Shown: positions 22,406 through 38,210 of the stretch, piece by piece | Position numbering within the stretch: the first letter of the stretch is position 1 | Layout: every line of letters begins with the position of its first letter | From: Escherichia coli | GTDB taxonomy: Bacteria; Pseudomonadota; Gammaproteobacteria; Enterobacterales; Enterobacteriaceae | NCBI RefSeq assembly: GCF_003790525.1 | Contig: NZ_CP033635.1 | DNA: 64,000 nucleotides | Strand: one strand, 5' to 3' | Notes under the pieces: generated by a model | Seen by the model: the letters and a program-made list of their open reading frames with translations, nothing else | The model's database searches: none | Told to the model about the DNA's origin: nothing | Made by a program: the position numbers and the translations under genes

Positions 22406-22554
22406 TACTTAACTATATGAAAATAAATGGATTTTATTTTCATGTGTCCAGATAATGTCCATCTTTGAAGAAAAAAGTCCACAATACTGACGTTGTGGGC
22501 TTTTCTTTTTCCTGATGGTGTCGTGCCGTCAGTGCAACGAACCAAAGGGAGGGG

Positions 22555-22932: not shown

Positions 22933-23073
22933 TTACGGTTTACACTGCAAGAACGCCGCAAAACGCGCTCCCCAGATATCAAAGCTGAATTCACATAACG
23001 AATCGTGGACCATCCAGATGACCAGGGTTATTGTCAGGCATAAAATGCCAACAATAATCGTTTTTTGCGGTAT
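22933..23073 (-). pseudogene. Hok/Gef-family toxin paralog with ATA in the start position
   Basis: Frame gives IPQKTIIVGILCLTITLVIWMVHDSLCEFSFDIWGARFAAFLQCKP; same length and context as the intact copy at 24938-25078. Confidence 0.45.
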
Positions 23074-23173
23074 AGCGCTTGCTCCTTTTACAAAGAGGCG
23101 CTAACCTTCCACTTGTCACGGTAGGAAGGGTCAGGCCTCGGTTAAACACAGATGTTTTCCGGGGCCTTTCCAC
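22991..23173 (-). CDS. Mok-like reading frame overlapping the hok-like ORF
   Basis: ORF overlaps the hok paralog in another frame; paralog of 24945-25178. Confidence 0.3.
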   Translation of the reverse strand: MERPRKTSVFNRGLTLPTVTSGRLAPLCKRSKRYTAKNDYCWHFMPDNNPGHLDGPRFVM

Positions 23174-23283
23174 ATCCGGCCTTCAGGTTTTCCCTCCGGC
23201 CATCAGCCGAAAGGCACCCGTTTCTTTTTGTTGCGGCAATATTTCAGGTGTCAGTTGGGGTGGGCTGTATCTTGTCTGATGCA

Positions 23284-23382
23284 TAAAAAAATGCCCGCGC
23301 TTTGGCGGGCAAAAGACAAGACTTTTCGTTTGTATATCATGGATAATGGACACCCCTTCCTGTTGTCAGGTGGCAGGCACCC
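23284..23382 (-). ncRNA. Candidate small RNA or leader unit X1
   Basis: Minus-strand -35 TTGAGA (23412-23417), 17-bp spacer, -10 TAGATT (23389-23394); ends at hairpin plus U-run. Confidence 0.3.
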
Positions 23383-23486
23383 GTGGTTAATCTACTGTTT
23401 TTGTGCTTTTGTCTCAACCCTGAAGTTTTCATGGAAAATCAGGGTTGCTTCATATGTGCCAGGAAGGTGCGGCTATGATAACTGCC

Positions 23487-23578
23487 AAAAAAAGCCCGCT
23501 TTCCGGCGGGCAAAACAGCAATGTGAGTTGTCTGTCATTGATACTGGACAGCCTTCCTGTTGTCAGGTGGAAGGTACC
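23487..23578 (-). ncRNA. Candidate small RNA or leader unit X2
   Basis: TTGAGA-N17-TAGATT on the minus strand, then terminator. Confidence 0.3.
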
Positions 23579-23930
23579 CGTGGTTAATCTACTGTCTTTG
23601 TGCTTTTGTCTCAACCCTGAAGTTTTCATGGAAAATCAGGGTTGCTTCATGTGAACCAGGAAGGTGAGGCGATGGTAACCGCCAAAAAAATGCCCGCTTT
23701 CCGGCGGGCAAAACAAGGAAGTACGGATCATGTATTATTGATTACGAGGCATTCCACCATGCCCACGTTTAATTTAGCTAGTTTTCATTTTATTCACAAT
23801 ATAGTTACTTATCATATTTATGAACAAAACTGTAATTTCATCTATAGGTATAAGTGATTTGCATTAACATGTTTCTTCTGTATTGCTGTTGGTTTTCCGA
23901 TGCTGATATTTATGATACATTCAGGGGCAA

Positions 23931-24002
23931 ATGAGGTTGTTCCACAGAAACGATGTTGAGATATTTCTGCTCCAGAAAGGACAAGCTAAAAAAATAAAGT
24001 GA
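23931..24002 (+). pseudogene. Disrupted paralog (Y1) of the small protein at 25756-25971
   Basis: MRLFHRNDVEIF... then premature stop; conserved AT-rich upstream region. Confidence 0.3.
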
Positions 24003-24135
24003 AATTATGATATGTCAGGGATGTTCAGGCATGTCAGTGTCTTATTAATAAACTCGTTGCTGCTGTAATAACACCAAAAAAATCAAAGCATAATCTGCAT
24101 GTTGTTCCTGATGACCCAATAACCACAAAAGAATA

Positions 24136-24228
24136 AAAAAATGCCCGCTTTCCGGCGGGCAAAACAGCAATGTGAGTTGTCTGTCATTGATACTGGACAC
24201 CCTTCCTGTTGTCAGGTGGAAGGCACCC
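24136..24228 (-). ncRNA. Candidate small RNA or leader unit X3
   Basis: TTGAGC-N17-TAGATT on the minus strand, then terminator. Confidence 0.3.
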
Positions 24229-24586
24229 GTGGTTAATCTACTGTCTTTGTGCTTTTGGCTCAACCCTGAAGTTTTCATGGAAAATCAGGGCTGCTTTGTG
24301 TGCGCCAGGGAAGGCGCCTCGATGGCAGGCGCAAAAAAAATGCCCGTGCTTCGGCGGGCAAAATAAGGAAGTACAGGTTACATGTTATTGATAAAGTAGC
24401 ATTGCTCTGTCCGTCTTTAATCTAACGAGTTTTGAGTTTTTTCACAATATTGTTACCTGTCATGTTATAGATGAAACTGCAATTTCATCTATAGGTATAA
24501 ATGATTTGTATTAATGTGTGTCCACTGTTTGTCTGCTTTCTGGTTTTCAGTTGACTGTGTTTCTGATGAATTCAGGAGGTTGTCTT

Positions 24587-24685
24587 ATGAGGCTGTTCCA
24601 CAGAAACGATATTGAGATTGAACTGCATTTCTCCTCCGGTGAGGATAAGGTTAAATCATTGTTGATGAAAAAAACAAAGATTTAA
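24587..24685 (+). pseudogene. Truncated paralog (Y2) of the small protein at 25756-25971
   Basis: MRLFHRNDIEIELHFSSGEDKVKS then divergence and stop; SD AGGAGG. Confidence 0.3.
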
Positions 24686-24815
24686 TTTATTGATATAAAG
24701 GATTTGTATCAGCGTATGTCCACGCAGTGACCACATTTTCGAGAGGTAGAGTAAGCCCGCAACATTGCGGGCTTTGTCTTATAGTCTGATCACTGTTTCA
24801 AGTCGGTGAGGACAC

Positions 24816-24852
24816 CAAAAAGAAAACCCGCAGTTTTTATGCTGCGGGTTTG
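24816..24852 (-). terminator. Intrinsic terminator downstream of the hok-like gene
   Basis: Minus strand aaacccgcagcataaaaactgcgggttt plus T-run. Confidence 0.6.
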
Positions 24853-24937
24853 TTGTTCATGTCTGTGAGATAGGGTGCCTTATCGACCTTACCCTGGCAA
24901 CCGATTGACGGGGGATTGCTCCCCCGTCGCGGTTTCC

Positions 24938-25078
24938 TTACTTCTTACATTGTAAGAACGCCGCAAACTCCGCTCCCCAGAAGCTCATCCGTATTTCGCA
25001 CAGCGAACCGTGCAATATCCAGATGATGAGGATTGCCGTCACGCAGAACGTGATGGCCGTAAGCGATTTTTGCGACAT
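24938..25078 (-). CDS. Hok/Gef-family type I toxin homolog (46 aa)
   Basis: MSQKSLTAITFCVTAILIIWILHGSLCEIRMSFWGAEFAAFLQCKK; TM helix plus SLCEIR...AAF as in Hok; SD AAGGAG. Confidence 0.65.
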   Translation of the reverse strand: MSQKSLTAITFCVTAILIIWILHGSLCEIRMSFWGAEFAAFLQCKK

Positions 25079-25178
25079 AGCACTTGCTCCTTTTCCGGAG
25101 AGGCGCTAACCTTTCACTTGTCAAGGTAATGCGGTTAGGGCCTCGGTTAAACAGAAATGTTTTCCGGGGCCTTTCCAC
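24945..25178 (-). CDS. Mok-like reading frame overlapping the hok-like ORF
   Basis: ORF track; overlaps the hok homolog in another frame. Confidence 0.3.
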   Translation of the reverse strand: MERPRKTFLFNRGPNRITLTSERLAPLRKRSKCYVAKIAYGHHVLRDGNPHHLDIARFAVRNTDELLGSGVCGVLTM

Positions 25179-25314
25179 ATCCGGCCTTCAGGTTTTCCCT
25201 CCGGCCATCAGCCGAAAGGCACCCGCGCGTAATTTAACTGTTTCTTTTTGTTGCGGCAATATTTCAGGTGTCAGTTGGGGTGGGCTGTATCTTGTCTGAT
25301 GCATAAAAAAATGC

Positions 25315-25400
25315 CCGCGCTTCGGCGGGCAAAAAACAAGACTTTTCGTTTGTATATCATGGATAATGGACACCCTTCCTGTTGTCAGGGGGAGGTACCC
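25315..25400 (-). ncRNA. Candidate small RNA or leader unit X4
   Basis: -35 and -10 hexamers kept (TTGAGC, TAGATT) while the 17-bp spacer differs from X1-X3. Confidence 0.3.
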
Positions 25401-25755
25401 GTAGCTAATCTACTCACTTTGTGCCCGCAGCTCAACCCTGAAGTTTTCATGGAAAATCAGGGCTGCTTTGTGTGCGCCAGGGAAGGCGCCTCGATGGCAG
25501 GCGCAAAAAAAATGCCCGCTCTCCGGCGGGCAAAACAATGATCTACGTCACATTATATTGATAACCGGGCATTCCTCCATGCCCATTTTTAATTTAGCCA
25601 TTTTTCATTTTGTTCACAATATAGTTATCTATCATATTCATGAATGAAATTATAATTTCATCTATAGGTATAAATGATTTGTGTTAATATGTTTCTCCTG
25701 TCTAACTGTTTTCTCATTTTTCGATACTAGTATTTCTGATATATTCAGGGGGCGT

Positions 25756-25971
25756 ATGAGATTGTTCCGAAGAAACGATATTGAGATTGAACTGCATTTC
25801 TCCTCCGGTGAGGATAAGGTTAAATCAATAAAGGTGAAACTAAGACATGCCCGGGATGTTCAGGCGTGTCAGTGTCTTATTGATGAACTCGTTGCTGCCG
25901 GAGGAACGCCAAAAAAACAAAAATATAATCTGCACGTGGTTCCTGATGACCCCATAACCACAAAAGAATAA
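25756..25971 (+). CDS. Hypothetical small protein (72 aa), intact member of the three-copy 'Y' family
   Basis: MRLFRRNDIEIELHFSSGEDKVKS...; SD AGGGGG; AT-rich upstream region. Confidence 0.45.
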   Translation: MRLFRRNDIEIELHFSSGEDKVKSIKVKLRHARDVQACQCLIDELVAAGGTPKKQKYNLHVVPDDPITTKE

Positions 25972-26113
25972 AAAAATGCCCGCTTTCCGGCGGGCAAAAA
26001 ACAATTTAGGTCATATTTCATCATGGATAATTAAATACTTGCCCGTGGTTGCGGGAAAGTATCTGCCGTTAATCTACTTGCCTTATGATGTCCTCTCAAC
26101 CTGATTATTGTTC

Positions 26114-26365
26114 TTAAATATCAAGATTAATCTGAGTATTCCCCCTGTGAGATCCCGGAAAATCTTCCCACGGTATCCGCTCTGTACCCTGCGGCGACGG
26201 GGCGCGTTTTGATGTGAATTTGTTAAAACCCTCCAGTGTGGTAAAGCCGATCCCGCATTCGAGGTTATTGCACTGGTAGTACTTCAGGCGAACTGTGCCT
26301 GAATCATTTTCATTGCGACTGGTGCGGATACGTGCGGATGCACCGCATAGGGGACAACGGAACAT
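26114..26365 (-). CDS. ogr: Ogr/Delta-type zinc-finger late-gene activator
   Basis: MFRCPLCGASARIRTSR...YYQCNNLEC resembles P2 Ogr C2C2 finger. Confidence 0.85.
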   Translation of the reverse strand: MFRCPLCGASARIRTSRNENDSGTVRLKYYQCNNLECGIGFTTLEGFNKFTSKRAPSPQGTERIPWEDFPGSHRGNTQINLDI

Positions 26366-26408
26366 GGCTTCTCCTTATCTGGCTGAGTGGAGATGGCTCA
26401 TTTTAATT

Positions 26409-27500
26409 TTATCCGCCTGAATCTGCTATCCATTCGGGGATTTTCGCTTCCAGCTCCAGTTGTGTGGTGAAGCCGCTTTCATCTATGATGTGCTCCACCC
26501 TGGCAATAATCCAGTCCTGATTGTCCACCTCGCTTTTAAAACCTGTTACCCTGCCGTGCATTTCGGGATACAGGTCGGCACGACCCCGTGCCAGAGTGAT
26601 GGAGAATGCCGCTGCTCCCCGCTGTAACTCCTGCCACTTTGCCGCAGCTGCACGTCGTGCGGTTTCTTCATTCTGGTAAGTCCTGCGCAGAACGTAGACG
26701 TTCCCTTCCGCGCCTTCCATGTAATCACCCTCCCGGCTGCTGCTCTTCTCCTGTTTCTGTTTCCCGGCTTCCCTGCGTCGCTTCACGTTCACTTTTTTCT
26801 TGTGCCCGAACTTCAGATCGAGCCAGTGCGCCCGGACCCCCGTATACGCATCACGGTCAGCAATGCGAAAGCGGTGACTGTCGCCGCTGCTGCGGGTAAT
26901 GGCGAACGAAGGCAGGGCTCTTCCGTCCGGCCCGGTTCCGCCACCCGGCAGAATGAATAACAGGCTGCCGTTTTTTACGGTGGCAATCGCACCCAGCATT
27001 TCAGCCATGCGGGTCAGGAAGGATATATCGCTCTCTTCGGTCTGGTCAGCGTGGTCAATTTCGATATCCATGAGGATTTCGCTTATCTGTGTCTTCAGGC
27101 CGTAGCGGTGAGCGATGGCTGACACAACCTGTTTTACGGTCACGTCGTGCCAGGATACCTCCCGCCTCACGTTGAACTCTTCCCGAAAATCTGCGCTGCT
27201 GGCGGTGATGATCAGTTTATCTGGAGGTCCTTCCCACGCAACCTCATCAACGACGTAGGTGCCCTTGTTAACCAGTGATTCTCCTCGCCAGCCAATCATC
27301 ACTCTCAGGCGTGCGCCACGTGGTGGCAACTGTAACTGCCCGTCCGTATCGTCAAGGGTGAGGGTGACGCGGTCTGCCTCAAAGGCCCGGTTATCCGTCA
27401 GGGTCAGCGTCATGAGTCGCTCTGTGAGGTTTGCCAGTGTGTTGTTGTTGATGGTGATGTCGATATCCGGTGACGGAACGGTAACTGACAGCTCTTTCAT
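26409..27500 (-). CDS. D: P2 gpD-like tail protein
   Basis: TLTDNRAFEADRVTLTLDDTDGQ...SWHDVT...REGDYMEGAEGNV resemble P2 D; start at MKELSVT with SD AGGAGA. Confidence 0.85.
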   Translation of the reverse strand: MKELSVTVPSPDIDITINNNTLANLTERLMTLTLTDNRAFEADRVTLTLDDTDGQLQLPPRGARLRVMIGWRGESLVNKGTYVVDEVAWEGPPDKLIITASSADFREEFNVRREVSWHDVTVKQVVSAIAHRYGLKTQISEILMDIEIDHADQTEESDISFLTRMAEMLGAIATVKNGSLLFILPGGGTGPDGRALPSFAITRSSGDSHRFRIADRDAYTGVRAHWLDLKFGHKKKVNVKRRREAGKQKQEKSSSREGDYMEGAEGNVYVLRRTYQNEETARRAAAAKWQELQRGAAAFSITLARGRADLYPEMHGRVTGFKSEVDNQDWIIARVEHIIDESGFTTQLELEAKIPEWIADSGG

Positions 27501-27567
27501 GGTGTTCTCTCCTGGTGCGTTCTGTAATGGTTTCATGCACCGCAGCGGCGTTGAATGGCTGTTTTGT

Positions 27568-27585
27568 TGTCGCTGTCAGGAGACA
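27568..27585. promoter_or_regulatory. Ogr-type late-promoter dyad TGT-N12-ACA between divergent D and FI
   Basis: TGTTGTcgctgtcaggagACAACA, about 76 bp from the D ATG and 85 bp from the FI ATG. Confidence 0.5.
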
Positions 27586-27661
27586 ACATCAAAGGGGTGA
27601 GATTACCGCGTGTGTGGGTAATGATTACGCAAAATCAACCAGCCAGACAAGGGTGAAACAT

Positions 27662-28945
27662 ATGAGTGAAACACGCTTTCATGGTGCGCGCGTAAGGGAA
27701 AGTACCGGCCTTGCCACCGCCATTAATGATGTGGATTCCAGTGTTATTGGTATTGTGGCTACGGCAGATGACGCGGATGAAACTCTGTTCCCGCTGAACA
27801 AACCCACACTGCTGACCCGCGTCAGTGATGTGCTGGGTAAGGCCGGCACAAAGGGGACGCTTTACAAATCGCTTAAGGCTGTCGCCGACCAGGTGAGCAC
27901 GAAGGTGATTGTGGTGCGCGTTCCTGATGCCAGTTCTCAGGGCGCCCCGGATACAGGAGTTACATCATTCGGTCATCTGGATCCTGAAGACAGGGCATTT
28001 TTTGGTATTGATGAGTCTGAAGATGCACATCCTGTATACCCACACAAAACGCAGGACCAGTATGTCATTGGTGGCACGGATGGCGACGGTAATTATACCG
28101 GTATGTATGCACTTCTGATAGCTGAACAGGATGATGCCATCGGTTACCGTCCGCGCATCATCGCAGCTCCCGGACTGGATACTGAAGCTGTCACAAAATC
28201 CCTGTGTGTAATTGCAGAAAAACTTCGCGCATTTGTCTACGCGGGCTGTCACAACTGCAAGAAGCCCGCCGATGCAATCAGCTACCGCGCCAGATTTAAC
28301 GAGCGCGAACTTATGCTGGTCTGGCCGGACTTCATCGCCCATAACCCGAAATCCGGCGCTAATGAGGTCTTCCCGGCTGTGGCGTACGCCTGCGGTTTAC
28401 GTGCACGTATTGACCACGAACAGGGCTGGCATAAATCGCTGTCCAACGTGCCGGTAAGAAATGTGCTGGGTATTTCCAGCCCGGTGTTCTGGTCCCTTCA
28501 GTCCGAAGACAGCGATGCCAACAATCTCAACAACAAGGAAATCACTACCATCATTTGCCGTAACGGTTTCCGCTTCTGGGGCAACCGTACGCCGGAAACG
28601 AAGGCGTATATCTTTGAGGTGTACACGCGAACCGCTCAGGTGCTGGCTGATTCCATTGCGGAAGCGCAGTTTGAAACGATTGATGCCCCGCTGACCCCTG
28701 CTAATGTGAAAGACGTGTTAAGCGCAATTCGCGCAAAACTGGATGCGCTGGTTACGTCAGGACGTCTCATTGGTGCGGAGTGCTGGTATGACGTGGTGGA
28801 TAACAGCACCACGGAACTTCGTCAGGGACGCGTGCGTATCCGCTACAAGTACACGCCCGTTCCGCCGCTTGAGGATATGGAACTTTACCAGGCGTTTACT
28901 GATGAATTCTTTGGTCCTGCATTTGCGACGCTTGGAGGTGCTTAA
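27662..28945 (+). CDS. FI: Tail sheath protein (P2 FI-like)
   Basis: MSETRFHGARVRE...DETLFPLNKPTLL...KGTLYKSLKAVADQ resembles P2 FI. Confidence 0.85.
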   Translation: MSETRFHGARVRESTGLATAINDVDSSVIGIVATADDADETLFPLNKPTLLTRVSDVLGKAGTKGTLYKSLKAVADQVSTKVIVVRVPDASSQGAPDTGVTSFGHLDPEDRAFFGIDESEDAHPVYPHKTQDQYVIGGTDGDGNYTGMYALLIAEQDDAIGYRPRIIAAPGLDTEAVTKSLCVIAEKLRAFVYAGCHNCKKPADAISYRARFNERELMLVWPDFIAHNPKSGANEVFPAVAYACGLRARIDHEQGWHKSLSNVPVRNVLGISSPVFWSLQSEDSDANNLNNKEITTIICRNGFRFWGNRTPETKAYIFEVYTRTAQVLADSIAEAQFETIDAPLTPANVKDVLSAIRAKLDALVTSGRLIGAECWYDVVDNSTTELRQGRVRIRYKYTPVPPLEDMELYQAFTDEFFGPAFATLGGA

Positions 28946-29463
28946 TGGCCGTACCAAAAAATCTCAGGGTGTTCACGCTGTTTACTGACGGGGTGAACCA
29001 GATTGGCAGGGTGACCGGCTTCACGCCCCCCAAACTGACCCGTAAAACGGAAGCCTATCGCGGTGGTGGTATGGCCGGCGCGGTGAATATCGACCTTGGT
29101 CTGGATGACGGCGCGCTGGATGCGAGTTTCACCATGGGCGGGCCGACCCGCGAACTGTTCCTTAAGTACGGCGGCACGATCGACGGTACGCTGCTGCGCT
29201 TTGTCGGTGAGTACTACAACGATGAAGAGCAGAGCGACCTGTATGAAATTGAGCTTCGCGGCCGCGTGACGGAAATTGATACGGGGGAGGCAAAACAGGG
29301 TGAGGTCACGTCTCACACCTATGCGGTCAGGAGTACCTACTACAAACTCAGCATTAACGACCGTCCGGTGCTGGAGATTGATTTACTGAACCACATCGAA
29401 CGCAAGGACGGCAAAAACGTCTTCCCGGACCGCGTGCGCTCGGCGATTGGTCTTGGTGGTTAA
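28945..29463 (+). CDS. FII: Tail tube protein (P2 FII-like)
   Basis: 172 aa directly after the sheath gene. Confidence 0.8.
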   Translation: MAVPKNLRVFTLFTDGVNQIGRVTGFTPPKLTRKTEAYRGGGMAGAVNIDLGLDDGALDASFTMGGPTRELFLKYGGTIDGTLLRFVGEYYNDEEQSDLYEIELRGRVTEIDTGEAKQGEVTSHTYAVRSTYYKLSINDRPVLEIDLLNHIERKDGKNVFPDRVRSAIGLGG

Positions 29464-29513
29464 TGTTTCCCACGGCGGCGCGCGGCGTCGCCCCCTGATT
29501 TGAGGTTTTATGC

Positions 29514-29876
29514 ATGAAAGAAAATCCGGTTGTTGCCCCTGTTACTGACGGTGCTGATGCGGCGGACGTGACCAGTGAGCGCGGCGTGACGCTGAAAACG
29601 CCCCTTGTGCTCGGTAACAAAAAAATCACGTATGTGGAAATCACGCCTGCTGTACAGCAGGCCGGTTCACTGCGCGGGCTGTCACTGCTTGACGTGCTGA
29701 ACATGAAAACGGACGCGATGTTTGAGTTACTCCCGCGCGTCACTTCGCCGCGACTGGACGAGGTTCTGCTTAAGCGCATGGGGTCCGCTGATTTTATTCA
29801 GCTGTGCGGGGTGGCGGTTAATTTTTTGGCCGGTCAGGACTCTGGCGGGAAGAGCGGGGCGGCGACGGCAGGCTGA
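29514..29876 (+). CDS. E: Tail assembly chaperone (P2 E-like); E+E' product by -1 frameshift would extend to about 30040
   Basis: Position between tube and tape measure; slippery heptamer near the 3' end. Confidence 0.7.
   Translation: MKENPVVAPVTDGADAADVTSERGVTLKTPLVLGNKKITYVEITPAVQQAGSLRGLSLLDVLNMKTDAMFELLPRVTSPRLDEVLLKRMGSADFIQLCGVAVNFLAGQDSGGKSGAATAG
29822..29828 (+). promoter_or_regulatory. Candidate -1 programmed frameshift heptamer T_TTT_TTG (E/E')
   Basis: In-frame AAT TTT TTG; -1 frame continues about 70 codons to TGA at 30038-30040. Confidence 0.55.
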
Positions 29877-30026
29877 TAACCGTCGTGCCCTTTGAGCACA
29901 TTGAAGACTTTGTGGCGGATATCGCCGTTATTTTCAACTGGTCTCCCGCTGAAATCTTCCTGATGGATCCCGGCGAGGTGGTCGCCTGGCGTGAGCGGGC
30001 GGCCCTTCGCAGCGGGAACGCAGAGC

Positions 30027-33000
30027 ATGAAAACGCTTGATATACGGGTCGCCTTCAGCGCTGTTGACAGGCTGACCCGTCCCACCGAAAACGCCCGTCG
30101 CATGATGGGCCAGCTTGGCGACTCCATACAGAGAACGCAGGGTGCGATCAAAAACCTGGAACGCTACGCCCGTTCATTTGATCGCGCCCGCGAGGCTGCA
30201 AACAAGGCCGGAAACGGCATTGTCAGGGCGCAACGCCAGTTAAGCGCACTTCAGCAAATTCAGCGCGCCGGAACCGTGCTGTCTGACAAACAGAAAAAGC
30301 TGATGAACGATTTGAGCCTCAAACTTGAGCGTCTCAATGAGGTCCGTGCGCGTGAAGTTCAGCGAATGCGCGAACTGGGTGGTGAGCTGCGGCGCCACGG
30401 TATTGCGCTTTCCGGCAGTGACAACACCATTCAACAGGCCATACGGCGAACACAGCAATACAACGACCAGCTGGAACGCGAACGGCAGGCGCTGGCACGT
30501 GTCACGCAGGCACGCCAGCAATATTCCCGTGCTCAGGAGACGGCGGGAAAACTTAAAACGGTCGGACTTACGGCGGTTGGTACGGCGGCGGCAGGCGGCT
30601 ATGCGGCCGGACGTTTCCTGCAACCGGCGGTCAGTTTTGGTAAGGAGATGTCACGCGTCCAGGCGCTGACCCGTATTGACAAAAACAGTCCGCAGTTTAA
30701 GGCGCTGCGCGAACAGGCCATTAAGCTGGGCTCTGAAACGCAGTTTACCGCCGGTGATGCTGCCAGCGGTCAGGCGTTCCTTGCCATGGCCGGCTTCACA
30801 CCACAGGCCATACAGGCGGCGCTACCCGGCGTGCTTGATCTGGCAATGGCTGCAGGGATGGACCTGGGACAGACTGCCGATATCAGTTCGAATATCCTCA
30901 CACAGTTTGGTCTGTCCGCTGACCAGATGGATCGCGTGGGTGACACGCTGGCCGCCACCTTCACACGAACCAATACGGATCTCCGTTCACTGGGTGAAAC
31001 CATGAAGTACACGGGTCCGGTTGCAGCTTCACTTGGCCTGTCCCTTGAACAGGCGGCAGCCATGACGGGTGTCCTTGGCAGTGTGGGGATCCGTGGAAGT
31101 GATGCAGGTACGGCGCTGCGTGCCAGTCTGTCACGTCTGGTTGATCCGCCGAAGGCCGCTGCAATGGCACTGAAAGAGCTTGGCGTGGAGACGCAGAATG
31201 CTTACGGGAACATGCGCCGGATGGAAAATATCCTGAATGAGCTGTACCAGGCCACCCGAAAATACGGTAATGCCGCGCAGGTCTCCTTTTTCAGGGCTAT
31301 TGCCGGGCAGGAGTCCTATGTTTCCCTGATGAATCTTGTCACTGCGGCGGGGGAAAATAATCTTCCCCGTCTTACGCAGGAGATTGAACTGGCCACCGGG
31401 GAACTTAATCACACTGCCCGTGTTATGGCTGATAACCTGGACGGTGACCTGAAATCACTGAACAGCGCATGGGAAGGACTGCGTATCCGTGTCGCTGACC
31501 TCGTTGACGGGCCGCTGCGTTCTGTCACGCAGTCGTTCACCCGGGTTATTGCGAAAGTCACCGCGCTGGCTCAGGCGCACCCTGAACTGACAAAACAACT
31601 GCTGATTGCCGGTGGTGTACTGCTGGCTGCGGTTGCGGCCATGGGGGCGCTGTCACTTGCCACTGGTGTGTTGATGGGGCCGCTGGCAAAACTGCGTCTT
31701 GGGTTTGCCCTGCTGACCGGCACATCCGGCCTCGGTCGTGCGCTGCCGTTACTGACGCAGCTGCGCGGCGTACTCGGTGGTCCGCTGGGCGGTATCGGTG
31801 GCTGGCGCGTGCTGTTTGTCGGTATCACCTCCGGTGCCGGACGGTTTGCTGCACTGCTGGGCGTAGTTGCGGGGCGGCTTCGTGGTGTGCAGGCGGGACT
31901 TGGCGCGCTGCGTGGTGGTCTGCTGGCTGCGTTCACTTCACCTGGCGGCGCACTGATTTCACTGGGGCGCGGTATCGGAATACTGGCGCTCAGACTGTCA
32001 GGTCTGCCCGCACTGTGGGGGATGGTGAGTGGTGCGGTGGGCGCACTTGGCGGGGCGCTGGGTTTTCTGTTAAGTCCGGTGGGCCTTGTGGTGGCGACAC
32101 TGGTCGGTGCGGCAGTGCTTATCTGGCGGCACTGGGACCAGCTGAAGGCTGTCGTGGGCGGGTTCTTGTCCGGCCTGTGGCAGGGGCTTACGCCACTGCG
32201 CGAGGCTGTGGCACCACTGGGACCGCTGTTTGAGTATGTCGGGCAGACAATCGGGCGTGTGTGGCAGTGGTTCGTGGATTTGTTCGCGCCGGTAAGCACA
32301 ACAAAGGATGAGCTGGACAAGTGCACGGAAGCCGGGCGTACGTTCGGGCAGAAGGTAGGGGAGTTTATCAGCAATCTGGTGACCGGTCCGGTTACGCTGC
32401 TGATTGACTCATTAACCCGGGTGCTGGAAAAACTCGGGCTGATTCCGTCGGCGGTTGAGCGCGCCCGGAAAAAGGCGGAAGAACTAAAACAGAAGGAGTT
32501 GCTGAACGAGAAAGCTGCCATGCTTCTGGCGGATGTTAACGTCATTAATCCGCCGAAAAAGGACGAGGATAAAAAAGACGGCGAAAAACCCAAAGGGGGG
32601 CAACCACCCCTGACGGGGGAGAATACCGGCACTATGCGCCGCCTGAACAAAATCGTCGATAACACCGGTGGTCTGCTGGATGAGGCGAAACAGGCGAAAA
32701 AACGCGCTGGTCCCGGCGATATTATCTTTAAAAACCTGCCGGAAGCGCTGGCCGTTCGTGGTGAGTGGAAGGAGGAACGCTTTAACCGAGCAGCTTCCCT
32801 GTTACCGGGTAGTGTCAGTGAGCCACCTGTCAGACTGCCGCAGGTGCCGTCGGTCAGTGTGCCTTCGTTGCCACCGCTGCCAGCGCCACCGCCTGTCAGT
32901 GTTTCGCCGCTGATATCCACCACGGCGAACGTGTCGCCGGTCGTGAAGCCGGTGGTGTCCGTGAATAATGTGCCGGTTATTCCTCCGGTCGTCCGTCCGG

Positions 33001-33338
33001 TACTGTCCGGTAATATTACGCCAGTGGTTCCGCCGGTGATCAAACCGGTTATGACTCACGATGTCATGCCGACGTTCTCCCCGCTAATGACACCAGTGAT
33101 GGCGGCAACATCCCGTCCGGTGGTTGAGGCTGTGCGCCAGCCCATATCCCCCGCATCGCCCCGACCGCGCCAGAGTGAGCCGGCACCATGGGGATTAACT
33201 GGCGAACTGCATATTCACCTGCATGATGTTCACACGCAAAACCCGCGCGAACTGGCAAAAATGGTGGGTGATGCCGTCCGTGCGGAAATGGAACGCCGTA
33301 TCCGCCAGACAGTCGGTAGTTTCCGTGACAGAGATTAG
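30027..33338 (+). CDS. T: Tail tape measure protein (P2 T-like)
   Basis: About 1103 aa, coiled-coil N-terminus, Gly/Ala-rich hydrophobic middle; start MKTLDIRV. Confidence 0.85.
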   Translation: MKTLDIRVAFSAVDRLTRPTENARRMMGQLGDSIQRTQGAIKNLERYARSFDRAREAANKAGNGIVRAQRQLSALQQIQRAGTVLSDKQKKLMNDLSLKLERLNEVRAREVQRMRELGGELRRHGIALSGSDNTIQQAIRRTQQYNDQLERERQALARVTQARQQYSRAQETAGKLKTVGLTAVGTAAAGGYAAGRFLQPAVSFGKEMSRVQALTRIDKNSPQFKALREQAIKLGSETQFTAGDAASGQAFLAMAGFTPQAIQAALPGVLDLAMAAGMDLGQTADISSNILTQFGLSADQMDRVGDTLAATFTRTNTDLRSLGETMKYTGPVAASLGLSLEQAAAMTGVLGSVGIRGSDAGTALRASLSRLVDPPKAAAMALKELGVETQNAYGNMRRMENILNELYQATRKYGNAAQVSFFRAIAGQESYVSLMNLVTAAGENNLPRLTQEIELATGELNHTARVMADNLDGDLKSLNSAWEGLRIRVADLVDGPLRSVTQSFTRVIAKVTALAQAHPELTKQLLIAGGVLLAAVAAMGALSLATGVLMGPLAKLRLGFALLTGTSGLGRALPLLTQLRGVLGGPLGGIGGWRVLFVGITSGAGRFAALLGVVAGRLRGVQAGLGALRGGLLAAFTSPGGALISLGRGIGILALRLSGLPALWGMVSGAVGALGGALGFLLSPVGLVVATLVGAAVLIWRHWDQLKAVVGGFLSGLWQGLTPLREAVAPLGPLFEYVGQTIGRVWQWFVDLFAPVSTTKDELDKCTEAGRTFGQKVGEFISNLVTGPVTLLIDSLTRVLEKLGLIPSAVERARKKAEELKQKELLNEKAAMLLADVNVINPPKKDEDKKDGEKPKGGQPPLTGENTGTMRRLNKIVDNTGGLLDEAKQAKKRAGPGDIIFKNLPEALAVRGEWKEERFNRAASLLPGSVSEPPVRLPQVPSVSVPSLPPLPAPPPVSVSPLISTTANVSPVVKPVVSVNNVPVIPPVVRPVLSGNITPVVPPVIKPVMTHDVMPTFSPLMTPVMAATSRPVVEAVRQPISPASPRPRQSEPAPWGLTGELHIHLHDVHTQNPRELAKMVGDAVRAEMERRIRQTVGSFRDRD

Positions 33339-33349
33339 GAGTACCTCTC

Positions 33350-33838
33350 ATGATGATGATTTACGGCATGTTTGTTTTTGAGTTGCGTACGCTGCCTCAT
33401 CAACAACTGCAACATAATAAAACCTGGCGCCACGTTAAAAATGAACGCATCAATCGTTCGGCCAGCTGGCAGTATATCGGGGCGGGTGACGACCAGATCA
33501 CGTTGTCCGGTGTGCTTTATCCCGAAATTACCGGCGGTGAGGTTTCCCTCAGCCTTTTAACGACGCAGGCTTACACTGGTCGCCCATGGCCGCTGATTGA
33601 CGGTGTGGGGCAGATATACGGCATGTATGTGATAACGGCTGTCCGCACAACGCGAAGCGAACTTGACCGCCACGGTAAGGCCAAAAAAATTGAGTTCACT
33701 GTCAGTCTGGAACGCTGTGATGAGGATTTGCGGGAGAGTATGGCCTCGTCGCCGGTGTCTGATATGCTTTCGGGAATGAAAGGGAAGTTAAGTTCGGTCT
33801 GGAATACCACAGTAAGCGGCGTAAATGATCTGATGTGA
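33350..33838 (+). CDS. U: Tail protein (P2 U-like)
   Basis: MMMIYGMFVFELRTLPHQQLQ...ITLSGVLYPEITGG resembles P2 U. Confidence 0.75.
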   Translation: MMMIYGMFVFELRTLPHQQLQHNKTWRHVKNERINRSASWQYIGAGDDQITLSGVLYPEITGGEVSLSLLTTQAYTGRPWPLIDGVGQIYGMYVITAVRTTRSELDRHGKAKKIEFTVSLERCDEDLRESMASSPVSDMLSGMKGKLSSVWNTTVSGVNDLM

Positions 33839-33845
33839 AGGTAAT

Positions 33846-33865
33846 GTGCCGCATTCTTGCGGCAC
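33846..33865. terminator. Bidirectional hairpin between convergent U (+) and G (-)
   Basis: gtgccgcattcttgcggcac. Confidence 0.5.
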
Positions 33866-33908
33866 CTGCATGATGAATTATTTATGAATGCCCGTTCCTT
33901 TTCCCCGC

Positions 33909-34520
33909 TCATTCCATTTCTGGTGGTGTTTCCGGCCAGCTTATTTCAGGCTCCGTGCTGATATCCAGTGCGTTCAGCTCGTCGATATAATCCAGCACGG
34001 CATTCAGTTTTGCCGTTTCTTCTGGTGTCAGACTGCGACCTGCCCGCAACTTAAGGTTGATGAGGTCGATGGACTTCATCGCCTGATCCACCCGTTCCTT
34101 GCGTTGCTGTCTGGCAACCTCCAGCTCTTCGGCTTGCTGCCGTTCTGTATCGGTTACCCACGCCTCACCGTTCCAGGTATCCCATGGTGTGGCAGGCTGT
34201 TTTGTCGTTGTCCCTTCCGGGTAGTCACCTGGTTGGGTAATCTGGACCGGATTACCGTTCTCTGTGCTGTATACCGTCTCTCCACGATGATCGGGGACAT
34301 ACTCCCACCCGTCCAGCGTGGACGTCCGGCAAATCACGTAACCCGGCATTGCCTCTGGCGGGGCATCGGCGCATGAATGTGCCGGGGTACCCACCCCCAG
34401 GGCGAGATACTCCACAGAGGATGAGGTGTATTCCCGGGTTTCCTCATCATAGTGATATACAGTGATATCGCCTGCGAAAGTGGCGATACCGTTTTCATCC
34501 AGAACTGCAGTGTTACTCAT
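33909..34520 (-). CDS. G: Tail fiber assembly protein (P2 G-like)
   Basis: 203 aa downstream of the tail fiber gene. Confidence 0.7.
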   Translation of the reverse strand: MSNTAVLDENGIATFAGDITVYHYDEETREYTSSSVEYLALGVGTPAHSCADAPPEAMPGYVICRTSTLDGWEYVPDHRGETVYSTENGNPVQITQPGDYPEGTTTKQPATPWDTWNGEAWVTDTERQQAEELEVARQQRKERVDQAMKSIDLINLKLRAGRSLTPEETAKLNAVLDYIDELNALDISTEPEISWPETPPEME

Positions 34521-36754
34521 TAAACTGCCCTCACAATATAATTAAAAGCGATATTGCGCGGTCTGATCGCTATCCATCTGTCTTTTTCATTACTCACCAG
34601 CTTACCGGCTCTGGCTATTGCCCATCTGTCAACTGGTTTTGTGCCGTACAGGATGCCGTTACCGGTTCTGGGTTGATCAGGGGTTATGTTTATGATGTCG
34701 TTATCATGTGATGCAAATGAAATCCCTGCCTGAATATCTGCACCTCCCGCTACGCCGTGGTACGCCTGTATGGCGGTACAAATATATGTTGCTTCCTGTG
34801 TGGATAACAATAAGCGTCCCCTGTCAATCATTCGCAGGTCATCCCATCCACGAATAAATTCCCCGCGCAAATCTGGTAGCCTGAGGTCAGGGTAGGCCAC
34901 CGCCAGTTTTGGGTATTTTGTACGCGTGAATGCGGCACCGTTGCACTGTAACCACCCCTCAGGTGGTCTTGACGAAGGCCACGGAACGGGTACGCCAACT
35001 GGCAGCGTCGAGCCTTCTCCTAAACCAAAGTAATCAAGAATATCTTTTATGCTTTGTTTACCCATGATGACGCGGGCAACAGACGAAAAAACAGGGGCGT
35101 CTGTGATCTGAGCCCAGCGATGAGTGTGGGCTGCCGAGGCTTTGCTGTTGGCAAGGTCATACGCAGCTTTAACAGCTTTTGGTGTGGCCGCCAGCGTTTC
35201 GGAATTGCTGTTTGTGGCGCTGCTTAGCTGTACGATGCCTTTGCGTCCGGTGGTTGCATCCTGTCCTGTATACTTGCTCGTCAGCATATCGTGTAAGGCT
35301 TTAACCGCTTTGGGGGTGGCGGCCTCAGTCTCTGACTCACTGTTTGTGGCACTGCTCAGCTGTACGGTGCCTTTTGCCGTCAGCGAGGCTGATGGCACAC
35401 CTGTTATCTGATTCCACGGGTGGGTGTGGCTGGCGGGTGCTTTACCGGCTGCAAGGTCATATGCAGCCTTGACGGCTCTTGGTGTGGCCGCCAGCGTTTC
35501 GGAATTGCTGTTTGTATCGCTGCTCAGCTGTACGATGCCTTTGCGTCCAGTTGTTGCATCTGTGTTTGTCACCTCCACCCACTCTGACCATGGGCCGTTA
35601 CCGTTAAAGTTTCCGGTAACTGTCCTGATAAATTTTCGTGGCGGATCCCAGCTCGTGTATTCATGCTGGCAGAATCCCCATGCACCAACACGGATGCGTA
35701 ACTCTCCTGCCTTCTCTACAGGATAGTTTCTGTCTGTTCTCGCACCTGAGTCACTCTGCTGGTAATAATCTCCCGCGTCTTCCTTACGCCCCAGAGTGTT
35801 CAGGTCTGTTTCCCCCAGGGATGTTGTTGGCTTCACGAACGCCATGCTCAGTGCATCACTTACTGCCTTCGGTGTGGCCGCCAGTGTTTCGGAATTGCTG
35901 TTTGTGGCGCTGCTCAGCTGTACGATGCCTTTGCGTCCGGTGGTTGCATCCTGTCCTGTATACTTGCTCGTCACCATATCGTGTAAGGCTTTAACCGCTT
36001 TGGGGGTGGCCGCCTCAGTCTCTGACTCACTGTTTGTGGCACTGCTCAGCTGTACGGTGCCTTTTGCCGTCAGCGAGGCTGATGGCACACCAGTTATCTG
36101 ATTCCACGGGTGGGTGTGGCTGGCGGCTGCTTTACCGGCTGCAAGGTCATATGCAGCCTTGACGGCCTTCGGTGTGGCGGCCAGTGTTTCAGAGGTGCTG
36201 TTTGTGGCGCTGCTCAGTTGGGTGAATCCTTTTTCTGTCAGTGTCGCGTCAGGGTGGTTACGGGAACGTGCGTGTTCCGCCATTTTCTCATCAATGTAGT
36301 CCGTGGTCGGCAGAATTGTTGTTGTGTCCATGACCAGTTCCACCACGGCGTCGGAGGTGACGGTGATTACTGCACGGAATATCTGCGCCCGCCCTGAACC
36401 TTCCTCTCTGGTGGGCTTGTAACTTTCAGCGGTATTTCCTACTGCAATCATTGTACCTGTATCATCAAACACACCAATTTCACGCACCCAGAATCCGCCG
36501 GTTTCAGGAGGAATGACCAGTTCGGCGATGAGGCGGTTCGGGTTCTCCGGGTCGGTGAAGACGCGGTTGACAGACTGGCGCCAAACCTCATTGTAAAGCG
36601 ATGTCTGGTTTTTCTGCGGCTGACGAAGCTCTCCATTGCCGTCCCCTACAGCCATGTGCGTAAGGCGTACAGGTCTACCGCCAGGCGCCGTTGTTGCGGC
36701 CAGCTTTGCCAGCCCGATGTCGGTGATAAGGGTTCTGAATTTTCTCGTGCTCAT
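34520..36754 (-). CDS. H: Tail fiber protein (P2 H-like) with internal repeated modules
   Basis: 744 aa; repeated TGRKGIVQLSSATNSNSETLAATPKAVKAAYDLA and TAKGTVQLSSATNSESETEAATPKAVKALHDM blocks. Confidence 0.8.
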   Translation of the reverse strand: MSTRKFRTLITDIGLAKLAATTAPGGRPVRLTHMAVGDGNGELRQPQKNQTSLYNEVWRQSVNRVFTDPENPNRLIAELVIPPETGGFWVREIGVFDDTGTMIAVGNTAESYKPTREEGSGRAQIFRAVITVTSDAVVELVMDTTTILPTTDYIDEKMAEHARSRNHPDATLTEKGFTQLSSATNSTSETLAATPKAVKAAYDLAAGKAAASHTHPWNQITGVPSASLTAKGTVQLSSATNSESETEAATPKAVKALHDMVTSKYTGQDATTGRKGIVQLSSATNSNSETLAATPKAVSDALSMAFVKPTTSLGETDLNTLGRKEDAGDYYQQSDSGARTDRNYPVEKAGELRIRVGAWGFCQHEYTSWDPPRKFIRTVTGNFNGNGPWSEWVEVTNTDATTGRKGIVQLSSDTNSNSETLAATPRAVKAAYDLAAGKAPASHTHPWNQITGVPSASLTAKGTVQLSSATNSESETEAATPKAVKALHDMLTSKYTGQDATTGRKGIVQLSSATNSNSETLAATPKAVKAAYDLANSKASAAHTHRWAQITDAPVFSSVARVIMGKQSIKDILDYFGLGEGSTLPVGVPVPWPSSRPPEGWLQCNGAAFTRTKYPKLAVAYPDLRLPDLRGEFIRGWDDLRMIDRGRLLLSTQEATYICTAIQAYHGVAGGADIQAGISFASHDNDIINITPDQPRTGNGILYGTKPVDRWAIARAGKLVSNEKDRWIAIRPRNIAFNYIVRAV

Positions 36755-36757
36755 GGT

Positions 36758-37324
36758 TCAGTCTTCCGGGTAAATGGTGATGATGTCGCCGTCGTAACCT
36801 GCGGCAGCGGCGTAAATGGCACCGTGTATTTCCTGGATGATACTAAGCCCCACGAGGTGGCGGCTGACGGGGCGCGCATCGGCAATCAGACGCTCCATTT
36901 CTTCATGCAGCTCTTCACTTACTCCGGTTTCAAGTGTGCCAATCTCAATGGTGAAGGTCCCGGGCGAGCCGTCAAACTCCCACCATTCTGATACACGGAT
37001 GAGGTAGCCCAGTGGTTCAACGATGCGGCGGAGTGCACTGATGGTCCCTTTGTGGCGATGTATCATCCATGCGTCCCGAATCACCTGTCGCCTGGTCTCT
37101 TCCGGCCAGTTGCGGTCCCAGCTGTCAACGGAACATGCCCATGCAAGGTAGGGCAGGAGGTGAGCAGGGCAGCGGTCCGGCGACCACAGGGTGTCGGCGT
37201 CCACCGGTATGGTACTGATGCGTACTCCTGTCGCCTCTGTGGCGCGCATGAATGGCCCTGCGGACGGTGGAAGCAGTGATGTACTGTGCTGTGCGCTGTC
37301 TGTTTTTTTCCTGTCACTCATTGC
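36758..37324 (-). CDS. I: Baseplate protein (P2 I-like)
   Basis: Position and size; start chosen at MSDRKK. Confidence 0.7.
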   Translation of the reverse strand, partial: AMSDRKKTDSAQHSTSLLPPSAGPFMRATEATGVRISTIPVDADTLWSPDRCPAHLLPYLAWACSVDSWDRNWPEETRRQVIRDAWMIHRHKGTISALRRIVEPLGYLIRVSEWWEFDGSPGTFTIEIGTLETGVSEELHEEMERLIADARPVSRHLVGLSIIQEIHGAIYAAAAGYDGDIITIYPED

Positions 37325-38210
37325 GTCCTCCTTCGCTGATGCTGAATGTGGTACATCTGGCTGCCTGAGTGTCACTGATGGTGATGTTCTGCGTGGGTTT
37401 TATGACCTCAACGCGCTGGACACCGTGAACATGCAGCGCTGCAGTGATGGCTGACAGGGCCACGTCCTGACCGATACGGCCCTGGTCTGCCAGCCATGCA
37501 CGGAAAGCGGCGTCAGCGGCCGCAAGCATGGGTTCAGACTCCGGCCCTGGATAAAAATACAGCTTCGCTTCCATTACCCAGTTCACGATGGTAGCACTCT
37601 GCACAGTCAGGCGGTCGGCAACCGGGCGCACGTTCTCGGCATTCAGGGCGGTGCGCACCGTGTTCAGTAACGCCTCACCGGCGGTGCCGTCACCGTCTGC
37701 TGACAGGATGGAGACGGTGACTGTGGCCGGTGACGGGCTGATGGCGCGCGCATCACGGACAAGACCGCTTGCGCTCCGGGCAAAATACTCATACGCGCCG
37801 GACGGTCCGGCCACACTCAGGCCGTCCCAGGCTGACTGGGCACGCAGACGCAGCGATGTGTCGCTTTCCATCACTGCTTCCGTGGTATCAGTGGCCGGAT
37901 GAATGACCAGGCGGCGGGTGTTGTTGTTGGCGGCCAGATTGTCCAGGTCACTGCCCCGGCTGTGGCTGAGCATGCAGGCGCGGGCGGCTTCATTGATGCG
38001 CTGGCGAAGCAGCATTTCACGAAAGGCCATGGCCTGGGAAATGATGTTCAATGGCTCGGATTCCAGAGTAAGGGCACGGGTGACGGCGGCGCGGTATTCT
38101 TCCGGGAAGGAGCTCACCATCATGGTTTTAATGTCTGCCAGGATGGACTCAAAATCCGGCTGCGCGATGATGGCCGGTTCCGGTAACTGTGACAGGTCAA
38201 CGGAAGGCAT
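37314..38210 (-). CDS. J: Baseplate protein (P2 J-like)
   Basis: 298 aa in the V-W-J-I-H-G block. Confidence 0.75.
   Translation of the reverse strand: MPSVDLSQLPEPAIIAQPDFESILADIKTMMVSSFPEEYRAAVTRALTLESEPLNIISQAMAFREMLLRQRINEAARACMLSHSRGSDLDNLAANNNTRRLVIHPATDTTEAVMESDTSLRLRAQSAWDGLSVAGPSGAYEYFARSASGLVRDARAISPSPATVTVSILSADGDGTAGEALLNTVRTALNAENVRPVADRLTVQSATIVNWVMEAKLYFYPGPESEPMLAAADAAFRAWLADQGRIGQDVALSAITAALHVHGVQRVEVIKPTQNITISDTQAARCTTFSISEGGRNE

Follow-up and report, generated by a model that had tools for sequence, protein, structure and literature searches.

Introduction

Why does a P2-type prophage of Escherichia coli encode a tail tape measure protein (TMP) far longer than that of P2, and do the additional residues lengthen the tail? 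The question is raised by a gene within a 64,000-nt stretch of DNA (RefSeq assembly GCF_003790525.1, contig NZ_CP033635.1; the window in what follows), for which a sequence-only reading had claimed about 1103 aa against roughly 815 aa for P2 T, together with a Pro/Val-rich repetitive C-terminal region. The first claim is borne out, as the gene encodes a TMP that exceeds P2 gpT (815 aa) by 288 aa; the second also holds, given the composition of aa 916-1045 and a P-V-V-x period at the protein level. With a probability of about 85%, the gene is the intact tape measure of a complete P88-like (P2-family) prophage, consisting mostly of a clade-typical body and owing its length chiefly to a Pro/Val spacer of roughly 100 residues near the C-terminus; the allele is the product of a one-module deletion.

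Gene Identity and Neighbourhood

The features of the gene and its surroundings are listed in Table 1. The gene runs from ATG to stop as a single open frame, without a stop or frameshift across 3312 nt. The mechanical ORF begins earlier, at GTG 29991; the start at 30027 (MKTLDIRV...) agrees with that of every homologue. PF10145 matches with the whole model covered (E=2.6e-52; score 178 bits, cutoff 33.2), the PHROG 28 match of the 1103-aa protein has E=1.9e-179, and P2 gpT aligns in BLASTP (E=3e-65) along aa 4-544 at 32% identity and along aa 645-806 at 34%. Profile match, gene position, homology to P2 gpT, and the helical and hydrophobic make-up all place the protein in the P2 gpT-type tape measure family. 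A two-gene reading, raised by some PHROGs that match the C-terminal part only and by the PGAP annotation, which ends at aa 732, was rejected because there is no stop codon; it is also ruled out by the homologous region being one ORF in P88 and other phages. A 490-aa antisense ORF at 31571-33043, matched by no Pfam family, is taken to arise incidentally from the G+C richness of the sense frame.

The sheath and tube genes are followed by gpE, the T_TTT_TTG slip site and its E' frame, the TMP gene, and gpU; the order in P2 is identical, with the same E/E+E' arrangement. The E' extension terminates 14 nt within the TMP gene, and in RefSeq 29885-30040 carries the label GpE family protein. The prophage lies between serS and dmsA and has the full P2-type gene set from ogr to integrase; an Rfam scan of the repeat-rich region 22300-26500 gave no match. 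When the window and the TUM1886 annotation are compared with P88 and P2, the FI-FII-E-T-U block is found inverted with respect to both D/ogr and the baseplate/fibre genes, which is the P88/Xuanwuvirus layout: the gene of the P88 TMP (YP_009113088.1, 935 aa; Xuanwuvirus, Peduoviridae) has the same neighbourhood and orientation, with D on the opposite strand followed by FI-FII-E-E'-T-U, whereas P2 shows no such inversion of its tail operon against D. Judged by gene order, the prophage is P88-like, and it may lie outside Xuanwuvirus, identity having been compared for the TMP (55-68% aa to P88-group phages); the ICTV genus convention is about 70% nucleotide identity genome-wide.

Table 1. Coordinates of the TMP gene, its parts and the neighbouring tail genes in the window.
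Feature	Position	Strand	Basis and remarks
gpD-like baseplate hub protein	26409..27500	-	PF05954, PHROG 52; divergent, layout as in P88
Tail sheath, 427 aa	27662-28945	+	PF04984, PF17482, PF04985 found across sheath/tube pair; RefSeq coordinates
Tail tube, 172 aa	28945-29463	+	PF04984, PF17482, PF04985 found across sheath/tube pair; RefSeq coordinates
gpE-like tail assembly chaperone, 120 aa	29514..29876	+	PHROG 103, E=4.7e-31; upstream of T as in P2
T_TTT_TTG slippery heptamer (29822-29828) and -1 frame E' extension	29822..30040	+	read from sequence
Tail tape measure protein gene (P2 gpT homologue)	30027..33338	+	1103 aa, intact; PF10145, PHROG 28
N-terminal long helices, aa 3-178, Arg/Gln/Ala-rich; putative coiled-coil end of ruler	30033..30560	+	AF2, composition
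Helical-bundle region, aa 185-470, with PF10145 (aa 228-427)	30579..31436	+	pLDDT >93 throughout; Pfam
Gly/Leu/Ala-rich hydrophobic block, aa 505-700, three or four membrane-like segments	31539..32126	+	composition, Kyte-Doolittle
Lineage-specific Pro/Val-rich tract, aa ~926-1035	32802..33131	+	composition, proline spacing
Crossover point, codons 1026-1027; one 231-nt module lost relative to 1180-aa alleles	33102..33107	+	DNA comparison with CM2
Conserved C-terminal segment, aa 1056-1103 (G-E-L-H-I-H-L-H ... RELAKMVG..VRAEMERR)	33192..33335	+	conservation, AF2
gpU-like tail protein	33350..33838	+	PF06995, E=2.8e-41

Protein Architecture

The AF2 model, a monomer with a mean pLDDT of 68.6 that is uninformative on the packed state inside the tube, predicts helices across most of aa 3-564 and 664-824. 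The N-terminal helices span aa 3-80, 87-123, and 131-178, and block-mean pLDDT is 84-96 over aa ~31-160, falling toward both ends. The hydrophobic block contains 58% L+G+A, and Kyte-Doolittle windows of at least 1.6 occur at aa 521-554, 595-614, and 667-703. The exception to the otherwise mostly α-helical prediction is aa 825-1072, where no helix is predicted and pLDDT is below 50. A helix at aa 1073-1096 (pLDDT 78-84) lies in the C-terminal segment, which is kept in P88, Novemvirus, Reipivirus, and metagenomic relatives and is presumed, by analogy with other contractile tails, to be the baseplate-hub anchor.

If the steps established for lambda, TP901-1, and T4 apply here, several TMP copies would be held by gpE/E+E' chaperones, the baseplate hub would hold the conserved C-terminus, and polymerisation of the tube and sheath around the TMP would proceed as far as its N-terminal end; during infection, the TMP would exit C-terminus first, and its hydrophobic segments would help open an inner-membrane channel. 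The domains of the T4 TMP and its channel formation have been described (bioRxiv 10.64898/2026.03.06.709160).

Length Compared with Homologues

P2-type TMPs are fixed at 812-815 aa; P2 gpT and 186 G (812 aa), the latter compared by length only, are 288-291 aa shorter than the window TMP, which belongs to the same family (PF10145) and occupies the same slot after E/E+E' and before U. The C-terminal 100 aa of the P2 protein are unrelated sequence with no Pro/Val tract. P88-type TMPs have 933-936 aa, and those of the sister genera Novemvirus and Reipivirus have 988-995 aa. Because the relatives of the prophage already reach 935 or 988-995 aa, P2 is, on this sequence comparison, the wrong comparator, and about 60% of the length beyond that of P2 is usual in the clade. 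Among 144 diverse representatives, the median is 880 aa and the 95th percentile 1093, with at least 1103 aa in 5. The sequence-only reading had proposed that an alignment showing normal length for the prophage subgroup would remove the anomaly; this is half the case, since the protein is longer than is normal for the named genus (935 aa) but normal for its own E. coli sub-lineage, in which 22 complete genomes carry the 1103-aa form at full length and at least 99.5% identity and others carry forms of 1173-1180 aa. Strains with the 1103-aa allele include TUM1886, NRZ14408, and B771.

The P88 and window TMPs are collinear throughout, with 55% identity counting gaps and 68% over aligned columns; their first 20 residues show one difference, and the C-terminal motif and last ~50 aa can be aligned. 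They differ in that P88 lacks ~87 aa of the central block and has a Pro-rich linker of ~35 aa, compared with ~110 aa in the window. The TMPs of phiT5282H (Enterobacter phage, Novemvirus, 988 aa) and ST16-OXA48phi5.4 (Klebsiella phage, Reipivirus, 995 aa) show 51% identity to the window protein, with which they have the hydrophobic central block, the GPGDIVFKNLP motif, and the C-terminal anchor in common, but they have no Pro/Val tract, and their linker before the anchor is about 45-60 aa. The central Gly/Leu/Ala block, also present in P0121 and P0123, is common to the 988-1043-aa relatives and normal in the wider clade, its shortage in P88 being a loss; the Pro/Val tract is specific to the window lineage. 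The 1103 aa are composed of a clade-typical body of ~990 aa (N-terminal long helices, PF10145 helical bundle, hydrophobic block, and further helices), ~14 extra aa in the hydrophobic block, and a Pro/Val tract of ~100 aa.

The Pro/Val Tract

The region aa 916-1045 contains 23% Pro and 21% Val, and its richest 100-aa window has 50% P+V; a level of 40% in such a window is reached by none of the 144 diverse relatives. The core, aa 971-1034, consists of ~16 tetrapeptide P-V-V-x units, with the prolines of aa 971-1031 at spacings of four or multiples of four. The tract sits where there is otherwise only a short linker, after the motif GPGDI(I/V)FKNLP..LAVRGEW and ahead of the conserved C-terminal anchor; in P88 and other phage TMPs it is missing or measures about 35 aa. 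The periodicity can be recognised only in the protein sequence and, in a longer allele, as a DNA module of 80% identity; Tandem Repeats Finder on 29900-33400 returned nothing, the DNA-level repeat being too degenerate, and a generic direct-repeat search at the DNA level gave short chance-level matches only. Pfam has no family matching the tract, and a tblastn query made up of just the tract (aa 905-1060) had no match in 50,697 phage records, a search in which the low-complexity filter may have masked the query. Literature searches on proline-rich tape measure tracts and on Xuanwuvirus tape measures did not find the feature described. Since the tract cannot be α-helical, and AF2 predicts no secondary structure there (pLDDT <50), it is most likely a flexible or extended spacer adjoining the hub anchor.

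The DNA comparison also indicates how the window allele arose. E. coli alleles of 1173-1180 aa (CM2, 23CRST011; e.g., HDP6554638.1) have 94% protein identity to it, the same prophage type, and the same Pro/Val tract, but carry a second 77-aa Pro/Val module, making two modules in total that are 80% identical at the DNA level. The window DNA follows the end of CM2 module 1 through GCG GCA A and then the end of module 2 from ACA TCC CGT on, an exact hybrid. Because module 1 and then module 2 are matched exactly around one crossover, the window allele is, on this comparison, a one-module deletion of the longer form by unequal recombination. The length differences among the variants (6, 15, 21, 90, and 231 nt) are all divisible by three. 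Between the window and CM2 alleles, overall dN/dS is 0.17; aa 181-504 come from a divergent source (dS 0.70), which marks a recombinant segment. Within the tract, this pair differs by 3 substitutions only, so its dN/dS is uninformative there, and the paralogous modules give a dN/dS of about 0.5 on 47 codons only, indicating weak constraint at most. Internal repeats able to expand or contract by recombination, together with hydrophobic segments, have likewise been reported for the TMP of TP901-1 (PMC5099701); there the repeats are of 11 or 18 aa, the four 18-aa ones each starting with Trp, and lie in the measuring part, whereas the repeat of the window TMP has a proline-based 4-aa period and adjoins the C-terminal anchor.

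Tail Length and Possible Roles of the Tract

It is plausible, though unproven, that the tail is modestly longer than that of P88, at about 145-165 nm versus 137-140 nm, the window phage being known from its genes alone. The sequence-only reading noted that tape measure length scales with tail length; taken as a strict ruler, in which each extra residue counts, the TMP would give a tail of ~162-165 nm, clearly beyond P2 or P88, and the 1180-aa alleles one of ~173-177 nm, roughly 6 and 9 tube rings more than P88 at about 4 nm per ring. In TP901-1, the tail lengthens linearly with the number of TMP residues, also when deletions fall in the hydrophobic region, yet extrapolation in the same system leaves about 127 non-measuring residues (PMC5099701). 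Tails of 137-140 nm for P88 and 130-131 nm for pro147 have been reported by one study that measured both, as single rough estimates (PMC5285337). With a TMP of 935 aa, P88 has 0.147-0.150 nm per residue, near the α-helical rise, and a proline-rich extended chain could give even more; on the other hand, from pro147 (815 aa) to P88, 120 additional residues bring only 6-10 nm more tail. Furthermore, the extra residues of the window TMP are predicted by AF2 to be non-helical and disordered instead of forming a helical ruler, and they adjoin the hub anchor, where the TMP is partly buried and not measuring. The coexistence of one- and two-module alleles in otherwise similar prophages also suggests that tract length is not tightly constrained. 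On balance, strict proportionality is possible, at somewhat less than even odds.

Another role would come after ejection, in which the tract, as the first long segment out, acts as an extended spacer across the periplasm or cell wall that places the hydrophobic block at the inner membrane. The comparison made is with the proline-rich spacer of TonB, and it has been reported that the T4 TMP exits C-terminus first and adds a membrane conduit, a proline-rich region being noted in it (bioRxiv 10.64898/2026.03.06.709160). In addition, 23 of the 144 relatives carry Pro-rich C-terminal tracts at a relative position of about 0.7-0.9, with unrelated repeat sequences, and their TMPs are longer (median 955 versus 862 aa, p=0.007); their independent recurrence at one relative position suggests that composition and position, not sequence, are what is selected. 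This role is wholly analogical, however; P2, 186, P88, and most of the other relatives do with little or no tract, and 100-180 aa in extended form would be longer than the periplasm is wide. We therefore regard this role as unlikely. Similarly doubtful is the broader suggestion that the tract is a recombination-prone spacer, adjustable module by module, which would change either tail length in steps of ~77 residues within one lineage or the reach of the ejected C-terminus across the envelope.

The RefSeq annotation implies instead a decaying pseudogene in a defective prophage, with a C-terminal third that has lost its coding function; PGAP flags the gene as "incomplete; missing C-terminus" in TUM1886, CM2, 23CRST011, and F11, and truly broken copies exist (a 1.17-kb deletion with frameshift in LH10-b-1, truncation by a prophage deletion in F11), but this is very improbable for the window gene, in which neither a disrupted frame nor an absent C-terminus was found, given its uninterrupted 3312 nt, its full-length conservation in the 22 complete genomes, a C-terminal ~50 aa conserved with P88 and other genera, indels in multiples of three nt, an identical 1103-aa protein annotated as a full TMP by GenBank submitters, and an otherwise complete prophage. 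The flag probably arises because the PGAP reference proteins have no Pro/Val tract.

Biological Significance

Reading the gene as an intact tape measure corrects an annotation error, by which RefSeq calls an intact structural gene a pseudogene in several complete genomes; such a label can make a seemingly complete prophage look defective. Comparison across genera, P2 against P88-like, overstates the oddity of a 1103-aa TMP. The Pro/Val tract is an ordinary kind of TMP variation, and the identical protein already has a database entry as a tape measure protein. The natural series of 935, 1103, and 1180 aa in closely related E. coli prophages is a potential test set that could show whether a disordered proline-rich segment beside the hub anchor counts toward the ruler; if it does not, the tract would be routine low-complexity variation. 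If the tract were instead an adjustable spacer, the one- and two-module alleles would be natural variants with measurably different particles or host ranges.

Gene Identity, Intactness and Genomic Context

The gene lies in a single uninterrupted frame (mechanical ORF 29991–33338, plus strand), and reading from the ATG at 30027 to the stop at 33336–33338 gives a tape measure protein (TMP) of 1103 aa, whose N-terminus, MKTLDIRVAFSAVDRLTRP, agrees with the starts of all close homologues. The protein matches Pfam family PF10145 (178 bits, aa 228–427) and PHROG 28, "tail length tape measure protein" (E = 1.9e-179). The sequence-only reading had set about 1103 aa against roughly 815 aa for P2 gpT, and both lengths were confirmed: P2 gpT has 815 aa. 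The phage 186 homologue, G, proposed there for comparison, has 812 aa.

The RefSeq annotation of the prophage was taken from the chromosome of E. coli TUM1886, which is 100% identical to the window and in which the prophage is flanked by serS and dmsA. The P2-type complement is full, comprising ogr, D, tail, baseplate, fibre, lysis, head, terminase, portal, replication gene A, cox, repressor and integrase. The gene order is that of P88 (Xuanwuvirus) and differs from that of P2; in the window prophage (26114–38210), as in P88, the FI-FII-E-E'-T-U block is inverted compared with P2, both with respect to D/ogr at one end and with respect to the fibre and baseplate genes at the opposite end. Adjoining U, P88 also has a DNA invertase, which the window prophage lacks at that position. 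The slippery heptamer and its −1 frame reproduce the classic E/E+E' arrangement of the P2 annotation. The sheath is 33 residues longer than the 394-aa protein of P88, with an insertion at aa 89–121, SSQGAPDTGVTSFGHLDPEDRAFFGIDESEDAH, and the remainder is 77% identical. The prophage end adjoining serS is a low-GC stretch (22400–26100, 0.44–0.47), of which 2.5 kb has no RefSeq gene; it consists of a sequence of about 2 kb, directly and imperfectly duplicated, and a 174-nt unit present four times. An annotated Hok/Gef ORF (24938–25078, minus strand) lies within it, and a second, degenerate copy of this ORF is located roughly 2 kb upstream. An Rfam scan of this stretch gave no family at the gathering threshold.

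Coordinates of the tail genes around the TMP gene and of the predicted regions of the TMP
Feature	Position	Description	Basis
gpD homologue	26409–27500	divergent orientation	
Tail sheath	27662–28945	427 aa	
Tail tube	28945–29463		
gpE-like chaperone	29514–29876		
T_TTT_TTG slippery heptamer	29822–29828	−1 frame open to 30040	read from sequence
gpU	33350–33838		
TMP region	aa 3–178	long helices	AlphaFold2
TMP region	aa 185–470	helical bundle, very confident, pLDDT above 93	AlphaFold2
TMP regions	aa 471–564 and 664–824	helices	AlphaFold2
TMP region	aa 565–663	little regular structure; short helices 573–582, 594–601; mostly low confidence	AlphaFold2
TMP region	aa 825–1072	regular structure absent, low confidence	AlphaFold2
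TMP region	aa 1073–1096	C-terminal helix, confident	AlphaFold2

In four complete genomes RefSeq (PGAP) flags the gene as "incomplete; missing C-terminus": the call stops near aa 732 in TUM1886, CM2 and F11 and near aa 592 in 23CRST011, and the 0.8–1.8 kb downstream of it (1.1–1.8 kb in the three intact copies) carries no annotated feature. This pseudogene label is contradicted by several results: the frame is open, other genera conserve the C-terminal residues, the indels are all in frame and the overall dN/dS of the gene is 0.17. In addition, several GenBank accessions give the exact 1103-aa sequence as "phage tail tape measure protein" (30 contigs in a 573-member cluster). The tape measure gene of this P88-like prophage is thus intact and of an ordinary kind. 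E. coli LH10-b-1 and F11 carry the same prophage in degraded form: in LH10-b-1 the TMP gene has a 1.17-kb internal deletion and a frameshift, and in F11 the replication region is joined directly after TMP nt 2269 and the U to portal genes are lost. Many TMP entries from draft assemblies are "partial"; contig breaks within the gene are thus common. An antisense ORF of 490 aa (31571–33043, minus strand) overlaps the gene; Pfam gave no match for it, and it most likely arises as a side effect of the high G+C content of the sense frame.

Length Compared with Relatives

TMP length is essentially fixed at 812–815 aa in P2-proper phages, and is 933–936 aa in dozens of P88-type protein clusters, 988 and 995 aa in the sister-genus phages phiT5282H (Novemvirus) and ST16-OXA48phi5.4 (Reipivirus), and 919–1043 aa in the closest 50%-identity cluster representatives. 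For the 144 full-length representatives nearest to the window TMP, lengths have a median of 880 aa, a 95th percentile of 1093 aa and a maximum of 1424 aa, with at least 1103 aa in five (3.5%); this distribution places the window TMP in the upper tail of the family but inside its range. The earlier observation of a protein much longer than P2 gpT is thus confirmed and its interpretation partly supported: the protein is long for its genus and within the family's range.

Alignment with P88 locates the extra residues in two in-frame blocks. The first, about 87 aa within the Gly/Leu/Ala hydrophobic region (aa ~565–660), is absent from P88, and because Novemvirus, Reipivirus and metagenomic relatives all carry it, it represents a loss in P88 and not an insertion in the window; only about 14 residues of this region (aa ~602–616) are extra in the window lineage. 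The second is the lineage-specific Pro/Val tract (aa ~926–1035), which accounts for the length difference of the linker between the conserved motif GPGDI(I/V)FKNLP..LAVRGEW and the likewise conserved C-terminal segment GE(L/I)H(I/V)HLH...RELA..VG..VRAEMER, about 145 aa in the window and about 45–60 aa in relatives. The excess length thus has two sources, features typical of the clade and a modular Pro/Val spacer. AlphaFold2 was run with a 76-sequence alignment (mean pLDDT 68.6), and from its regions the lineage-specific residues are predicted to be non-helical. Membrane-like segments were found by hydropathy at aa 521–554, 595–614 and 667–703.

The Pro/Val Tract and Its Modules

The Pro/Val-rich, repetitive character read from the sequence at the C-terminal region was borne out. 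Residues 916–1045 contain 23% Pro and 21% Val, the best 100-residue window reaches 50% P+V, and the prolines at 971, 975, 983, 987, 991, 999, 1003, 1007, 1019, 1023 and 1031 recur at intervals of four residues or a multiple of four, which makes about 16 P-V-V-x units. In all 144 representatives, P+V stays below 40% in every 100-residue window.

Among complete E. coli genomes, the 3312-nt allele (at least 99.5% identity) is present in 22, and others carry intact alleles of 3522–3543 nt (1173 and 1180 aa), in which a 77-aa block follows residue 1026 and shares about 80% DNA identity with the module before it. The window sequence equals the end of module 1 of CM2, a strain with a longer allele, up to GCG GCA A, and the end of module 2 from ACA TCC CGT onward. 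Because the match to each flank is exact although the two modules differ by 20%, the loss of one module by unequal recombination in a two-module ancestor would be the simplest history. The length differences of the rarer variants (1098, 1101, 1073 and 1071 aa) are in every case multiples of three nt. The dS between window and CM2 is 0.70 at aa 181–504 (30567–31538) and 0.02–0.22 in the rest of the gene, and the gene is therefore a mosaic, with an internal recombinational replacement covering the PF10145 domain.

Proline-rich tracts occur in 23 of the 144 relatives, a tract being counted where 30-residue windows of 20% Pro or more together cover 40 residues or more. With the window TMP included (145 proteins), its tract ranks in the top four by size. 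For the 15 relatives whose tracts are longest, the scanning window richest in proline falls at relative position 0.69–0.90. Their repeat sequences are mutually unrelated, for instance in the relatives P0240, P0246 (1319 aa), P0259 (1143 aa) and P0215 (1096 aa). Median length is 955 aa with a tract and 862 aa without (Mann–Whitney p = 0.007), so C-terminal proline-rich expansion is a recurrent route to length gain in the family. A literature search found no published description of proline-rich expansion in these TMPs.

Possible Implications for Tail Length

In other phages, tail length is set by the length of the TMP. For TP901-1 a linear relation has been reported, in which each measuring residue contributes about 0.146 nm and about 127 residues do not measure; tails also become shorter when residues of a hydrophobic region are deleted (PMC5099701). 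The T4 tail contains six copies of the TMP, held at the distal tube and hub by a C-terminal loop; the protein exits C-terminus first, a transmembrane segment of it contributes to opening the conduit, and a proline-rich region was noted in it (bioRxiv 10.64898/2026.03.06.709160). By analogy, the hub may anchor the conserved C-terminus of the window TMP; the Pro/Val tract would then sit just above this anchor, as a disordered proline-rich spacer that might count towards the tail-length ruler.

Rough measurements from one study give tails of 137–140 nm for P88 and 130–131 nm for pro147 (PMC5285337), whose TMPs have 935 and 815 aa, respectively. On these rough values, each extra residue corresponds to 0.05–0.08 nm, less than the helical 0.15 nm. 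By extrapolation, the tail of the 1103-aa form would be about 145–154 nm by the empirical slope and about 162–165 nm by proportional scaling, and that of the 1180-aa form about 173–177 nm by proportional scaling.
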